From positions 1 through 6,147 of IMG/VR virus record IMGVR_UViG_3300020041_000070: 6,147 nucleotides of DNA; one strand, written 5' to 3'. Source of the stretch: a virus. Positions 1,680 through 6,079 of this stretch are shown piece by piece. The position numbers and the translations under genes are program-made. Every line of letters starts with the position of its first letter. Position 1 is the stretch's first letter. The notes below the pieces were generated by a model. It searched no databases. It had not been told where the DNA came from and saw only the letters and a program-made list of their open reading frames with translations.

Positions 1680-1726
1680 GCCCATCGCGGCGTTTGAGCG
1701 ATATACACCCGCCGCCCGCGTAGGGC
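1680..1726 (+). other. Imperfect GC-rich stem-loop (GCCC/GGGC plus CGCGG/CCGCG arms)
   Basis: GCCC (1680-1683) pairs with GGGC (1723-1726) and CGCGG (1686-1690) pairs with CCGCG (1716-1720), separated by a 2x2 internal loop. An alternative pairing is GCGGCG 1687-1692 with CGCCGC 1710-1715. Confidence 0.45.
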
Positions 1727-1739
1727 CTGGTCGAAAAAT

Positions 1740-1784
1740 GGAGCGGAGCGACTTCCTTATAGGAGCGCCCCGCTCCGGTATTTT
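1740..1784 (+). terminator. Long GC-rich hairpin (1740-1776) followed by GGTATTTT; candidate intrinsic terminator of the capsid transcript and/or an ssDNA structural element
   Basis: GGAGCGG (1740-1746) pairs with CCGCTCC (1770-1776), GCG (1748-1750) with CGC (1766-1768), and TCCT (1754-1757) with AGGA (1761-1764), leaving loop TAT. A T4 run sits at 1781-1784, but it is not immediately adjacent to the stem. Confidence 0.35.
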
Positions 1785-1801
1785 AGCACGGAGTGCGCAA
1801 A

Positions 1802-1824
1802 GGCAAGACAGTTTCTGCCTTGCC
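1802..1824 (+). other. Hairpin GGCAAGACAG-TTT-CTGCCTTGCC (10-bp stem with one mismatch)
   Basis: GGCAAG/CTTGCC and CAG/CTG pair, with a single A/C mismatch and a TTT loop. Confidence 0.6.
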
Positions 1825-1863
1825 GTGTCTATACACCTTTGTATACATTCACTTGTCAATTAA

Positions 1864-1889
1864 GCGAAGCCCCTAGTTGTGTGCGAAGC
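1864..1889 (+). repeat. Two copies of GCGAAGC (1864-1870 and 1883-1889), the stable DNA mini-hairpin heptamer
   Basis: Both are exact heptamers with starts 19 nt apart, in non-coding ssDNA-phage sequence. Confidence 0.7.
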
Positions 1890-1890
1890 A

Positions 1891-1913
1891 AATCCGAGTT
1901 ATCCTCTCGGATT
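1891..1913 (+). other. Perfect 8-bp hairpin AATCCGAG-TTATCCT-CTCGGATT
   Basis: The exact reverse complement arms are 1891-1898 and 1906-1913, with a 7-nt loop. No T-run follows (CTCCCCCTC instead). Confidence 0.65.
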
Positions 1914-1990
1914 CTCCCCCTCTTGTCTATAAACGCACAACTCACACTCCATCATAAATGGTCCTCTCCCCACAATTCCTGGAGGCAAAA

Positions 1991-2021
1991 TTTGGAAATA
2001 CGAAAAAAACTCATACCTTTG
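1991..2021 (+). promoter_or_regulatory. Bacteroidetes-type sigma-A promoter: -33 TTTG (1991-1994), 19-nt spacer, -7 TAccTTTG (2014-2021)
   Basis: It matches the two-part Bacteroides consensus TTTG ... TAnnTTTG. It lies about 50 nt upstream of the first gene of the 2072-4329 block, and an AT-rich leader follows. Confidence 0.5.
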
Positions 2022-2649: not shown

Positions 2650-4329
2650 ATGAAGTTTTCTCCTGATTTGTTTAAGGCTGTTGACCATTGTCAGCATCGT
2701 TCGTTTATTACGAACAAGTATACCGGTGCACGCATTGCCGTTGATTGTGGACAGTGTGATTACTGTATCCACAAGAAAGCTAAAAAGGCTTCTATGCGTG
2801 TAAAAACCGCTGGAAGTTCTTTTAAGTATTCTTATTTTGTAACTCTTACTTACGACAATGCGCATCTTCCTCTTATGAATTGTAGTGTTCTCCATAGTGA
2901 TTATGAGGATGCCTTAGGCATTTCAGGAGATATTCATTTTGGCAATGAACATCATCAGTATATCCCTGTTTCTGAATATCAATGTGGTGATAACTCCATG
3001 CTGCGTCATATATTCTTCGTTCAGGTACAAGGCACTGTGCCGTTTGACCGTGAAGTTAAGGAATATGTCCCTGTTAAGGATAATTGGTTTCTTAGTATGG
3101 ACGCTATTCGTAGTTTTATCAATAAGACGCAAGCTGTTGACAAAACGGATTATCCCGCTTCTGCACAATACGGTCGTGATAACCTTATTCCCTTCCTGAA
3201 TTATGTTGATGTTCAGAATTATATTAAACGCTTACGTAAACATTTGTCTTTGAAATTAGGTTCTTATGAAACGTTACATTTTTACGCTGTGGGTGAGTAC
3301 GGACCCGTGCATTTCCGCCCGCATTATCATCTCTTACTATTCACAAACTCGGACAAGGTCGCCGAGGTTCTACGATACTGTCACGATAAGAGTTGGAAAC
3401 TCGGTCGTTCAGATTTCCAACGTTCCGCTGGTGGAGCTGGCTCGTACGTTGCGAGTTACGTTAACAGCTTGTGCGCTTCTCCCCTCCTATATCGCTCATG
3501 CCGCGCGTTTAGACCCAGGTCGCGAGCATCTGTTGGATTCTTTGAAAAGGGCTGCGACTTTGTGGAAGATGAAGACCCTTATGCGCAAATTGAGCAAAAA
3601 ATCGATTCTGTCGTTAACGGAAGAGTCTATAACTTCAATGGCGTCAGTGTTCGGTCAACTCCGCCCATGTCGTATATCCGTACCTTATTGCCCCGATTCT
3701 CGTCTGCTCGCAATGACGATGTTGCTGCGATTGCTCGAATTCTTTGCGCTGTGCATCGGACGCCACAGAGAATTGCAAGGTTCGGATTCATTGATTACGG
3801 ACAAGGCTCAGTTTTAGCTCTTGTTCGTACTTATTATCAATATCTTAAGGTTAACTCTATTCTTACCGATGATGACAAGATTATATTACATGCCTCCCGG
3901 TGTCTTACCAGGTTTGTTAACTGTTCTAGTGATGTCGATACTGAATCTTTCATTAATAAACTGTATCGGCTGTTCCTATATGTCTATAAGTTCTTCCGTA
4001 ACTGGCATCTCCCTCTCTTTGGCTCTGATATTAGTGCTTACTCCGGACGTATTATGTTTATCATTAAAACGGGCATAGAGTATGAGAAGAAAGCGGATTA
4101 TGAAAGTTTACGAAATGCATATGACCTTCGTTCCCAATACTCAAACATATCGGATTGTATGTTTGCGTTGCCTCAGAACGGACAGGAGATTGATGTCCTG
4201 CAAGACGTTTCAAGTGAAACGCTTCAACTTCTTGAGCAACTCCGATACCGTAGTTCGACATTCTGTCGTGATATGATTAAGCATAAGCAGCTTAATGATG
4301 CTAACAATATATTCAATCGTATGGTTTAA
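2650..4329 (+). CDS. VP4: Replication initiator protein VP4 (HUH rolling-circle endonuclease, phiX174 A-like), 559 aa
   Basis: There is an N-terminal Cys cluster CGQCDYC (C33 at 2746, C39 at 2764). RCR motif 1 is FVTLTY (2836-2853). Motif 2 is HUH, H-Y-H in PHYHLLLF (3322-3330). Motif 3 is a double tyrosine, SYVASYVNS (Y266 at 3445-3447, Y270 at 3457-3459), closely resembling the phiX174 A-protein YVAKYVNK. Confidence 0.95.
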   Translation: MKFSPDLFKAVDHCQHRSFITNKYTGARIAVDCGQCDYCIHKKAKKASMRVKTAGSSFKYSYFVTLTYDNAHLPLMNCSVLHSDYEDALGISGDIHFGNEHHQYIPVSEYQCGDNSMLRHIFFVQVQGTVPFDREVKEYVPVKDNWFLSMDAIRSFINKTQAVDKTDYPASAQYGRDNLIPFLNYVDVQNYIKRLRKHLSLKLGSYETLHFYAVGEYGPVHFRPHYHLLLFTNSDKVAEVLRYCHDKSWKLGRSDFQRSAGGAGSYVASYVNSLCASPLLYRSCRAFRPRSRASVGFFEKGCDFVEDEDPYAQIEQKIDSVVNGRVYNFNGVSVRSTPPMSYIRTLLPRFSSARNDDVAAIARILCAVHRTPQRIARFGFIDYGQGSVLALVRTYYQYLKVNSILTDDDKIILHASRCLTRFVNCSSDVDTESFINKLYRLFLYVYKFFRNWHLPLFGSDISAYSGRIMFIIKTGIEYEKKADYESLRNAYDLRSQYSNISDCMFALPQNGQEIDVLQDVSSETLQLLEQLRYRSSTFCRDMIKHKQLNDANNIFNRMV

Positions 4330-4345
4330 TTTTAATTAATTAATT

Positions 4346-6079
4346 ATGAGTGATTTTAATCCTTTAGACCGAGCTAAAATTAATACCCATCGCTCGTCTT
4401 TCGACTTAAGTTCGAAAAAACTGTTTACCGCTAAAGTTGGAGAAATTCTTCCTTGTTATTGGCAGATTGCTATTCCTGGTAACAAGTATCGTATTTCTTC
4501 TGACTGGTTTACTCGTACTGTTCCTGTGAATACGGCTGCCTATACCCGTATCAAGGAATACTATGATTTCTATGCTGTGCCGTTGCGTTTGATTTCTCGT
4601 GCGCTTCCTCAGGCTTTTACTCAGATGACGGATTATATGACTAGTGCGTCTAGTTCTACAGAGAATTCATCTGCGCTTACTTCTGTTCCTACTGTTACCC
4701 AGAGCTTGTTTAGTCTGTTTCTTCAGACGGCTAATTCTCAGGACCAGCCTAATACTCGTGACGATGCAGGCCTTCCTGTTGTCTATGGTGCTTGTAAGTT
4801 GTTGGACATGCTTGGTTATGGTTCTATGATTTCATCTACTAATACAGGTAAGGCTGCTATCACTAAGTCATATCTGGGTGTTGATGGCCTCGGTGACTCT
4901 GATAATCCCTTGGTTTATCAGACATCTCAGACTGTCAGTGCTCTTCCGTTCCTTGCTTATCAGAAAATCTATTATGATTTCTTTAGTAACTCTCAATGGG
5001 AAAAGCATCGTGCTTATTCATATAATGTAGATTATTGGTCTGGTGTTGGTAATATTGGATTGGTTAGGTCTATGGTTGAGCTGCGCTATGCGAACTATCC
5101 TAAAGACTATTTTATGGGTATGCTGCCTTCTTCTCAATATGGTTCGGTAGCCGTTTTGCCCGGTATTTATAACCCCTTAGGATCTTCTAATTCTGTTGTT
5201 GCTGTTGCTGATTCTTCTGTGGATTATGTTGTTAATCCTTCTTCTTCTACTTCGGTTGTTGCTTCTGGTTCGTCTTCTTCTCAACGTGCTGTTTCTCTTA
5301 ATTCTGACCTTTCCGCGCTTTCAATTCGTGCCACAGAGTACTTGCAGCGATGGAAAGAGGTAGTACAGTTCTCTAGCAAGGACTATTCAGACCAGATGGC
5401 AGCCCAGTTTGGTGTTAAAGCTCCCGAATCCATGGGTAATCATGCTCATTATATTGGAGGTTGGTCTAGTGTAATCAATATCAATGAAGTGGTTAATACC
5501 AATCTTGATACCGATTCTTCACAGGCTTCTATTGCCGGTAAAGGTGTATCCAGTAACTCCGGCCATACTCTTACTTATGACTGTGGTGCTGAACATCAAG
5601 TTATTATGTGTGTCTATCATGCCGTACCTATGTTGGATTGGAATTTGACAGGCCAGGCTCCCCAATTGACTGTTACTGCTATATCTGACTTTCCGCAGCC
5701 CGCATTTGACCAGCTTGGTATGCAGTCTGTTCCTGCTCTTAATCTTCAGAATAACCCCGGTCGTAATGTTTCCGGTTCTTTAGGTTATAATCTGCGCTAC
5801 TGGCAGTGGAAATCTAACATTGATACCGTTCATGCCGGATTCCGTGCCGGTGCTGCTTATCAGTCATGGGTTGCGCCTCTTGATGGTTGGCAGGTATTGA
5901 CTTCCGCTGGTGCTTGGTCTTATCAGTCCATGAAGGTTCGTCCCCAACAGTTGAACTCTATTTTTGTTCCCCAGGTTGATTCTGACAATTGTTCGGTTGC
6001 ATTTGACCAGTTATTGTGTAATGTTAATTTCCAAGTATATGCTGTTCAGAACTTGGATAGAAATGGTTTACCTTATTAA
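4346..6079 (+). CDS. VP1: Major capsid protein VP1 (phiX174 F-like jelly-roll), 577 aa
   Basis: The N-terminal block RSSFDLSSKKLFTAKVGEILPCYWQIAIPGNKY is typical of the microvirus major capsid (FDLS...G.L.P...PG). Size fits, T3 bias is strong, and the C-terminus ends NLDRNGLPY. Confidence 0.95.
   Translation: MSDFNPLDRAKINTHRSSFDLSSKKLFTAKVGEILPCYWQIAIPGNKYRISSDWFTRTVPVNTAAYTRIKEYYDFYAVPLRLISRALPQAFTQMTDYMTSASSSTENSSALTSVPTVTQSLFSLFLQTANSQDQPNTRDDAGLPVVYGACKLLDMLGYGSMISSTNTGKAAITKSYLGVDGLGDSDNPLVYQTSQTVSALPFLAYQKIYYDFFSNSQWEKHRAYSYNVDYWSGVGNIGLVRSMVELRYANYPKDYFMGMLPSSQYGSVAVLPGIYNPLGSSNSVVAVADSSVDYVVNPSSSTSVVASGSSSSQRAVSLNSDLSALSIRATEYLQRWKEVVQFSSKDYSDQMAAQFGVKAPESMGNHAHYIGGWSSVININEVVNTNLDTDSSQASIAGKGVSSNSGHTLTYDCGAEHQVIMCVYHAVPMLDWNLTGQAPQLTVTAISDFPQPAFDQLGMQSVPALNLQNNPGRNVSGSLGYNLRYWQWKSNIDTVHAGFRAGAAYQSWVAPLDGWQVLTSAGAWSYQSMKVRPQQLNSIFVPQVDSDNCSVAFDQLLCNVNFQVYAVQNLDRNGLPY

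Follow-up and report, generated by a model that had tools for sequence, protein, structure and literature searches.

The window analysed here, the whole 6147-nt stretch of IMG/VR virus record IMGVR_UViG_3300020041_000070, comprises a complete microvirus genome, which is circular and 6026 nt long, with a terminal redundancy of 121 nt. According to the list of open reading frames (ORFs), supplemented by Pfam and the annotation of relatives, which also identified the flanking genes, every gene of this genome lies on the + strand (Table 1). The peptidase gene stands between VP2 and VP4, a gene order described for part of the Alpavirinae (PMC3394797). The genome has a single large non-coding tract, and its length of 451 nt, reported in the original prediction, proved correct. 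The subject of this work is a folded element occupying positions 1663-1950 of this tract, flanked by the pilot-protein gene on one side and a Bacteroides-type promoter on the other. As discussed below, we tentatively regard this element as a complementary-strand origin region of a phage that encodes neither a primase nor an RNA polymerase.

A conserved, folded and non-coding element

A blastn search with the tract against 50,697 phage records matched 34 of them, all gut or faecal microviruses (31 Dulem viruses and 3 others) sampled from lemur, dog and human. The conserved portion of the tract runs from 1663 to about 1950 and thus reaches well past the block at 1680-1830 that had originally drawn attention. 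A 30-nt pattern derived from this block was found in 98 IMG/VR contigs, nearly all of 5.4-6.6 kb and with one match per genome, and a second pattern brought the collection to 132 distinct elements from public microvirus genomes. The element is single-copy, always occupies the same position and was never met outside microviruses in either the pattern searches or a blastn search of plasmids. Its nucleotide identity to the window has a median of 90% and still amounts to 73-88% in genomes where, at the protein level, Rep is 56-65% and VP2 about 50% identical. The element is therefore kept more strictly than the proteins of the phage. In some records, including Dulem virus 243, megablast matches the element alone. 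VP2 of relatives is either about 50% or 80-97% identical to that of the window, a bimodal distribution that does not depend on the identity of Rep or capsid and suggests that the pilot-protein gene has been swapped by recombination beside the conserved element.

The block is exceptional in composition as well. The G+C count given for 1681-1830 in the original prediction (90 of 150, or 60%) was reproduced exactly; 150-nt windows of the genome average 42.3% (sd 6.1), and the maximum among all of them, 60.7%, belongs to the window beginning at 1680. The 451-nt tract is more stably folded than its shuffled versions, both as DNA (z = -4.1) and as RNA (z = -3.4), and together with the helices described below, which are backed by covariation, this establishes that the proposed density of hairpins is real. 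The element is non-coding, since the lengths of its copies are evenly spread over the three values modulo 3 (45/45/42) and reading frames are not conserved, which rules out protein coding. Hypothetical proteins have been annotated across the element in PP511392, PP511485 and PP511799 (L004, L005 and L007 in our collection) and in PV598014 (L138, the phage phiHBP1 described below; positions 2326-2736 of the record); these annotations are probably spurious. A known small RNA, one of the identities considered at the outset, found no support: in a search of Rfam 15 at a permissive threshold nothing scored better than mir-383 (18 bits against a gathering score of 70, E = 0.36). A scan for tRNA and tmRNA found none.

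Helices and compensatory changes

We curated a structure of 49 pairs in 11 helices and scored it on an alignment (A2) of 82 sequences less than 95% identical to each other; the larger set mentioned below comprises all 132 elements. In A2, 98.7% of the cells are paired, compared with 29-51% in slid registers. Changes on both sides that compensate each other occur in 19 of the 49 pairs (8.1 ± 1.3 in shuffles and at most 7 in slides), and there are 181 compensatory cells against 43.8 ± 4.8 in shuffles. The proposed structures had been made to depend on such changes among related genomes, where they turned out to be abundant.

The most unusual part of the structure is the nearly invariant 30-nt block at 1700-1729. 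Its two interlocked stems, SA and SB, were discovered because every rare variant of the block is compensatory: all cells of both stems are Watson-Crick, and each deviation from the consensus is matched by a change in the partner (in SB, the pair 1717-1723 is C-G in 128 sequences and T-A in 4). The loops connecting the stems are just 2 nt long, and the covariation fits joint and alternating formation alike. Judging from the sequences, SA and SB may therefore either combine into a compact H-type pseudoknot or form two hairpins that exclude each other. Immediately upstream, hairpin P2 is supported by the pair 1687-1699 (G-C 110, A-T 15 and C-G 5 of 132).

These helices replace the stem-loop initially drawn over 1680-1726, which does not stand in that form although the region indeed contains a hairpin, P2, and the two interlocked stems. 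The outer GCCC/GGGC helix of that stem-loop shows no compensatory change and is mismatched exactly where 1715-17/1723-25 covaries. Another outer helix, 1672-77/1727-32, also lacks compensatory changes, and the two rejected structures are mismatched in up to 53 of the 82 sequences. A second stem-loop that had been proposed, at 1740-1776, can form, but covariation backs a shorter hairpin at 1762-1776 together with the GCGGAGC motif at 1743-1749; the pair 1763-1775 is G-C in 50 and A-T in 27 sequences of A2, and G-C in 78 and A-T in 48 of the larger set. The remaining two predicted hairpins held up well. At 1786-1796, the pair 1788-1794 reads A-T in 60 of the 82 sequences and G-C in the other 22, and in the larger set A-T in 103 and G-C in 29 with zero exceptions. 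The hairpin at 1802-1824 occurs in two alternative stem versions, both of which fold, with the pair 1803-1823 switching from G-C (130 sequences) to A-T (2).

Further downstream, helix H6 closes a three-way junction that encloses the mini-hairpin at 1883-1889 and hairpin H7 (1891-98/1906-13). H6 is retained with a different sequence in phiHBP1, a phage cultured on Bacteroides fragilis, and the CTTGT of the unpaired pyrimidine-rich strand is retained in all three clades that carry this part of the element (see below). Two other pairings were considered and not adopted. The long-range pairing of 1740-49 with 1863-72, suggested by RNAalifold, involves columns that are all invariant and conflicts with a mini-hairpin, and the pairing of GCAAAGG (1798-1804) with the promoter box CCTTTGC (2016-2022) does not covary among relatives. 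The heptamer TATA(C/A)AC is found three times in conserved unpaired positions, at 1703-1709 (GATATACACC), 1830-1836 (CTATACACC) and 1928-1934 (CTATAAACG), and could be a protein-binding repeat.

Two modules with different distribution

The element is modular. Its 5′ module, the GC-rich block of hairpins, is conserved in more than 120 genomes, and yet it is missing from two relatives whose Rep proteins are 86% (L151) and 83% (L159) identical to that of the window. Both have a terminator-like hairpin with a T-run in its stead, and L159 has an extra 150-nt insert in addition. In L148 the copy of the 5′ module is mutated. Absence from close relatives had been named as an observation that would count against the block; what we found limits its role to that of an accessory module rather than an essential core, while leaving its conserved structure intact. 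In L166, the 5′ module is partially duplicated in tandem, from the P2 loop through the first arm of hairpin 1802-24, and the tract between VP2 and the 3′ module contains an extra ORF of about 78 aa (MYYELRIK...), which L159 has as well.

The modules are joined at a hot spot for insertions. Some relatives have no insert there, and others have a 35-nt hairpin, a repeat in three tandem copies (L063) or an insert of 150 nt. The inserts were seen in L002, L013, L063, L148 and L159; the 35-nt hairpin reads CCCTAGATCTA...TAGATCTAGG, the repeat unit in L063 is about 22 nt long, and the 150-nt insert is common to L148 and L159.

The 3′ module, lying outside the block originally described, is the essential-looking part of the element. 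A covariance model of window positions 1858-1950 (R1) has one full-length match per genome in phiHBP1 and eight IMG/VR relatives (32-42 bits, E = 2e-7 to 3e-5) and one match per genome in a third clade (27-30 bits, E = 3e-4 to 1e-3), although Rep and capsid proteins of these other clades are only about 30-35% identical to those of the window. The match in the phiHBP1 clade is on the coding strand directly upstream of the Rep gene. In all three clades the components follow the same order (a mini-hairpin, the closing helix, GCGAAGC, AAA, a hairpin, the pyrimidine-rich strand with CTTGT, the return of the closing helix and CACA), and the helices are retained across clades through compensatory change. 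At the site of the 3′ module, phiHBP1 has five mini-hairpin motifs within 130 nt. On its coding strand, at about 3741-3790, there are also two G7 runs split by ACCCTCT and adjoining a GGGAGC-AAG-GCTCCC hairpin; this arrangement is conserved in the phiHBP1 clade as a 5′ module of its own. In the third clade (L152-L154), the 3′ module abuts the VP2 stop codon, and directly after the module stands a long inverted repeat with imperfect arms, CATACCTAAATGTGCGT ... ACGCATTTTTAGGTATG.

Mini-hairpins and strand assignment

The strongest covariation signal of the entire element comes from the second mini-hairpin of the 3′ module, whose closing pair 1883-1889 is G-C in 77, C-G in 45 and A-T in 9 of the 132 sequences. 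Natural variants (CCGAAGG, GCGAAAGC, CCGGAGG and ACGAAGT) preserve the mini-hairpin motif, and in a subgroup carrying G1746A the mini-hairpin at 1743 becomes GCGAAGC. Mini-hairpin motifs occur at 9.66 per kb within the element and at 0.39 per kb elsewhere in these genomes, a 25-fold enrichment, and exactly three are present in 109 of 121 genomes. The signal is strand-specific, as the opposite strand within the element has 0.91 motifs per kb. We assigned the strand from these loop motifs; the asymmetry of G·T pairs is uninformative here, G·T being nearly absent. Indeed, among the helix cells of the 132 sequences, 5842 of 5903 are Watson-Crick, 15 are G·T (0.25%) and 17 are A·C. Real RNA families contain many G·U pairs, which greatly outnumber their A·C mismatches.

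A recent review gives melting temperatures of 76.5 °C for d(GCGAAGC) and 39 °C for r(GCGAAAGC); it also states that mini-hairpin motifs are poorly bound by single-strand binding protein (SSB) and that such motifs are found at the complementary-strand origins of G4, St-1 and alpha3, in RSF1010 ssiA and in the single-strand promoters of N4 (PMC13037366). Four observations favour DNA as the form in which the element acts: the mini-hairpins themselves, the scarcity of G·T, the conserved unit straddling the only terminator-like site of the region, so that covarying hairpins stand behind the T-run, and the placement of the 3′ module in L151 and L159, where it lies between a canonical terminator and the promoter.

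Terminator-like and promoter signals

In the interval 1500-2200, the only terminator-like site on the coding strand is the hairpin 1762-1776 followed by GGTATTTTAG. Of the roles proposed earlier, that of a terminator therefore fits one hairpin, whose stem covaries, and from its sequence this hairpin probably also ends the genome-length transcript. The T-run is short, and one subgroup is without the hairpin. Downstream of the element, the two boxes of the promoter were matched to the established Bacteroides promoter consensus. The promoter is followed by a two-codon mini-ORF, ATG TAG (2026-2031), and 40 nt further on, at 2072, by the first real gene. Within the element, the Bacteroidota -7 box TAnnTTTG is present in only 2 of 132 copies, and a scan for sigma-70-type promoters revealed none in 1663-1950.

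Table 1. Genes, modules and structural features of the microvirus genome (positions in the 6147-nt window)
Feature	Position	Strand	Basis or remarks
147-aa ORF	65-508	+
Pilot protein VP2	505-1620	+
Sole large non-coding tract of the genome	1621-2071	+	From VP2 stop (1620) to 65-aa ORF (2072), ORF list
5′ module, GC-rich hairpin block	1663-1837 (approx.)	+	Clade-specific, accessory
Hairpin P2, ATCGC / GCGAT, 9-nt loop	1684-1702 (1684-88 / 1698-1702)	+	Pair 1687-1699 covaries
Nearly invariant 30-nt block	1700-1729	+	Two interlocked 3-bp stems, SA and SB
Stem SA	1710-1712 / 1718-1720	+	1710-1720: C-G 119, T-A 7, G-C 6
Stem SB	1715-1717 / 1723-1725	+	1715-1725: C-G 127, G-C 4, A-T 1
Mini-hairpin GCGGAGC within invariant GGAGCGGAGCGAC	1743-1749	+	Motif scan; stem invariant
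Hairpin GGAGCG-CCC-CGCTCC, then invariant GGTAnTTTAGC	1762-1787	+	Terminator-like; alternative longer hairpin 1740-1776
Hairpin GCAC-GGA-GTGC	1786-1796 (1786-89 / 1793-96)	+	Covariation
Hairpin of 10 pairs, A1808·C1818 mismatch, TTT loop	1802-1824	+	Inverted repeat and covariation
Variable joint between modules, insertion hot spot	1838-1853	+	Inserts in relatives
3′ module, 93-nt core	1858-1950	+	Covariance model R1; common to distant clades
Mini-hairpin GCGAAGC, first of two in 3′ module	1864-1870	+	Motif scan; one compensatory variant, ACGAAGT
Helix H6, closing the three-way junction	1875-1882 / 1935-1942	+	Compensatory changes in three pairs
Mini-hairpin GCGAAGC, second in 3′ module	1883-1889	+	Variants CCGAAGG, ACGAAGT, GCGAAAGC, CCGGAGG
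Hairpin H7, AATCCGAG / CTCGGATT, 7-nt loop	1891-1913	+	Compensatory changes in 7 of 8 pairs
Unpaired pyrimidine-rich strand, conserved CTTGTC(Y)ATAAAC	1914-1934	+	Invariant columns in A2
Unpaired CACAC directly after H6	1943-1947	+	Invariant in window clade; only CACA retained in phiHBP1 clade
Bacteroidota-type promoter: TTTG (1991-1994), 19 nt, TACCTTTG (2014-2021)	1991-2021	+	Both boxes invariant in 13 diverse relatives
65-aa ORF	2072-2269	+
M15 peptidase	2339-2647	+
Replication protein (Rep, VP4)	2650-4329	+
F-type capsid protein	4346-6079	+

A putative complementary-strand origin and its alternatives

Several roles had been suggested for the hairpins in the original prediction, and the one that best fits the evidence, although we hold it at somewhat less than even confidence, is that of a G4-type complementary-strand origin or another signal read on single-stranded DNA. 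More specifically, we tentatively interpret the element as a replication signal of single-stranded DNA, the complementary-strand origin region, with the hairpin 1762-1776 serving as a transcript terminator as well; both its action as DNA and its action in priming are what we infer from the observations above. Complementary-strand priming is the first step in every microvirus infection. In the packaged (+) strand, the element would fold into about ten short hairpins, including the three d(GCGNAGC) mini-hairpins and the pseudoknot-like pair of stems. After infection these hairpins, and above all the mini-hairpins, would remain free of SSB and would thereby mark the priming site for a host enzyme, be it primase, primosome or RNA polymerase. 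The 93-nt 3′ module would represent the ancient, universal core. Its being read by a host factor would explain why this module survives where Rep has diverged to 30%, whereas the 5′ module would be an auxiliary part that also supplies the terminator of the genome-length transcript. For other microvirus clades, a role in priming the negative strand has been proposed for conserved intergenic hairpins that show compensatory changes (PMC9865509).

A number of considerations weigh against this interpretation. The 5′ module cannot be an essential origin because it is dispensable in at least two relatives. Neither the box search nor the sigma-70-type scan found a promoter mimic within the element. 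Moreover, the microvirus packaged strand has mRNA sense; + strand DNA and sense RNA thus have the same sequence, and covariation alone cannot separate one from the other. The near absence of G·T could stem from very strong selection on short RNA stems, and GNA triloops are also known in RNA.

It is thus worth asking whether the element acts as RNA, namely as the 3′ untranslated end of the genome-length mRNA, where a cluster of hairpins would terminate the transcript or stabilize it against 3′ exonucleases, or would give rise to a small RNA derived from the 3′ untranslated region and acting on phage or host transcripts. The block does follow the last gene (VP2) directly and on the sense strand, it holds the only terminator-like hairpin with a T-run in the region, a plain terminator takes the place of the 5′ module in L151 and L159, and the RNA fold is more stable than shuffles, as noted above. 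We nevertheless consider this explanation rather unlikely. No Rfam family matches the element, G·U pairs do not exceed A·C mismatches in its helices, and three 2-bp GNA mini-hairpins would be unstable as RNA (PMC13037366). Furthermore, the hairpins 1786-1796 and 1802-1824 and the whole 3′ module covary downstream of the T-run; the subgroup without the terminator hairpin retains GGTAnTTTAGC and has two GCGAAGC motifs instead; long unpaired stretches that terminators do not need are invariant; and a promoter was found neither upstream of the element nor within it. A different possibility is that the element is the plus-strand origin of rolling-circle replication, at which Rep (VP4) binds and nicks, for example, the unpaired CTTGTC of the 3′ module presented by the surrounding hairpins; both origins would then share the whole intergenic region, as they do in filamentous phages. 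No other non-coding DNA of the genome is conserved, the unpaired CTTGT and CACA beside the junction are invariant in all three clades, and TATA(C/A)AC is repeated at 1703, 1830 and 1928. HUH nickases of other single-stranded replicons cut in loops beside hairpins, and very divergent Reps can have a common nick motif. However, phiX174-type origins lie within the Rep gene and do not need a hairpin, and the first 18 bases of the 30-nt phiX174 origin CAACTTGATATTAATAACACTATAGACCAC match the genome at 12 of 18 positions at best, on the + strand, which equals shuffled genomes. The 5′ module is missing from genomes with 83-86% identical Rep and therefore is not the plus-strand origin of L151 and L159. 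Finally, the enrichment in mini-hairpins is typical of priming sites and not of nick sites (PMC13037366). Taken together, these data make a plus-strand origin improbable in our estimation.

The irregular distribution of the 5′ module raises the question of whether this module participates in replication at all. It might be an interchangeable insert, kept for some advantage (for example as a DNA or RNA decoy or aptamer directed at a host protein or host defence) or spread by recombination among co-infecting microviruses. This would agree with its presence, absence, duplication or replacement among close relatives, with the other inserts at the same joint, with a composition unlike the rest of the genome and with the isolated megablast match in Dulem virus 243, which fits recombinational exchange. 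Yet the element always occurs as a single copy at a single position and never outside microviruses, purifying selection this extreme, accompanied by compensatory change, points to a function in all carriers, and no defence-related partner is known; we give such a cassette outside replication only a small chance. Nor do we think it likely, though the thought deserves mention, that the 3′ module alone is the replication signal and the 5′ module an exchangeable folded accessory weapon or regulator, such as a decoy, made of single-stranded DNA or of RNA, that captures a defence sensor or another protein of the host; this accessory would then consist of the compact pseudoknot, one mini-hairpin and three further hairpins. 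An integration site or DNA derived from the host, both of which had been proposed, are essentially excluded. Microvirus proviruses occur in Bacteroidetes genomes (PMC3091885), and an attP/dif-like site of a temperate microvirus, or captured host sequence, could be imagined at such a position. However, a recombinase site needs no ten covarying hairpins, and phiHBP1 showed no lysogeny (PMC13064476). In 185,579 species genomes, the 30-nt core pattern had 0 matches and relatives of the capsid were not found either, both searches being able to detect close relatives only. A blastn search of 72,556 plasmids gave chance matches only (E = 3), with no homologue of a plasmid single-strand origin and no similar stretch from which the block could have come. 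Thus, the chance that the element is either of these is in our view very slight.

Relation to known single-strand signals

The systems closest to the putative complementary-strand origin are those of G4, St-1 and alpha3. Like them, the element consists of clustered stable hairpins that lie on the packaged strand, in an intergenic region of a microvirus, is conserved above the surrounding genes and carries GCGNNAGC or GCGNAGC mini-hairpin motifs, which bind SSB poorly (PMC13037366). The agreement thus covers the non-coding location and strand, the conserved hairpin cluster and the presence of mini-hairpins within the hairpin region. However, blastn of the tract revealed no recognizable sequence similarity: G4-type phages are not among the 34 matched of 50,697 phage records, a comparison in which the G4 origin itself was not aligned directly. 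In addition, the origins of G4, St-1 and alpha3 span about 140 nt, whereas the present element is about 290 nt long, consists of two parts with three mini-hairpins and a pseudoknot-like block, and belongs to a phage with a Bacteroides host.

In length and overall behaviour the element also resembles the plasmid origins ssoA and ssoU and the minus origin of Ff phages. These are long (150-300 nt), orientation-specific, highly folded and non-coding, are conserved better than the genes of their replicons, can be exchanged between replicons and are dispensable at a cost. The intergenic region of Ff phages also holds a terminator hairpin and the plus origin. On the other hand, ssoA, ssoU and Ff origins employ RNA polymerase at a promoter-like hairpin, while our element, apart from the 2 of 132 copies mentioned above, has no Bacteroides promoter box; and it has no homologue among the 72,556 plasmids searched by blastn. 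RSF1010 ssiA and ssiB and the N4 promoter hairpins share with the element CCGAAGG or GCGGAGC mini-hairpins, which dedicated enzymes read on single-stranded DNA (PMC13037366), and these heptamers recur in the element, at positions 1743, 1864 and 1883 as well as in its natural variants. Those signals differ in being single hairpins of about 40 nt served by an enzyme of the plasmid or phage itself, which this microvirus does not encode. The most similar case with respect to the way of discovery is that of the reekeekee- and roodoodoo-microviruses, whose intergenic hairpins were likewise found through nucleotide conservation and compensatory substitutions and have been suggested, though not proved, to be where the negative strand is primed (PMC9865509). 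They comprise one or two hairpins of 13-64 nt, whereas here we deal with a multi-helix element of about 290 nt that has a core common to several clades, one of them with a cultured member.

Significance

Hairpin-cluster origin signals in single-stranded phages are well known as a kind. This particular element appears to be new: we found no description of it in the literature searched, no Rfam family and no plasmid homologue. Across a large group of Bacteroides-type microviruses no other stretch is conserved as well, and recognizing the element corrects the annotation of public records in which a hypothetical protein has been placed across it. Few phages are as common in the human gut as microviruses and yet, to our knowledge, the start sites of their DNA replication have not been established outside phiX174 and G4. 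The clear architecture of the element and the availability of a cultured carrier of its core (phiHBP1 on B. fragilis) make it testable. If it is indeed a complementary-strand origin, it would offer the first handle on the priming of single-stranded DNA in Bacteroidota and a natural case of DNA mini-hairpins, and possibly of a DNA pseudoknot, maintained under selection. It would also provide a portable single-strand origin for genetic tools in Bacteroides.

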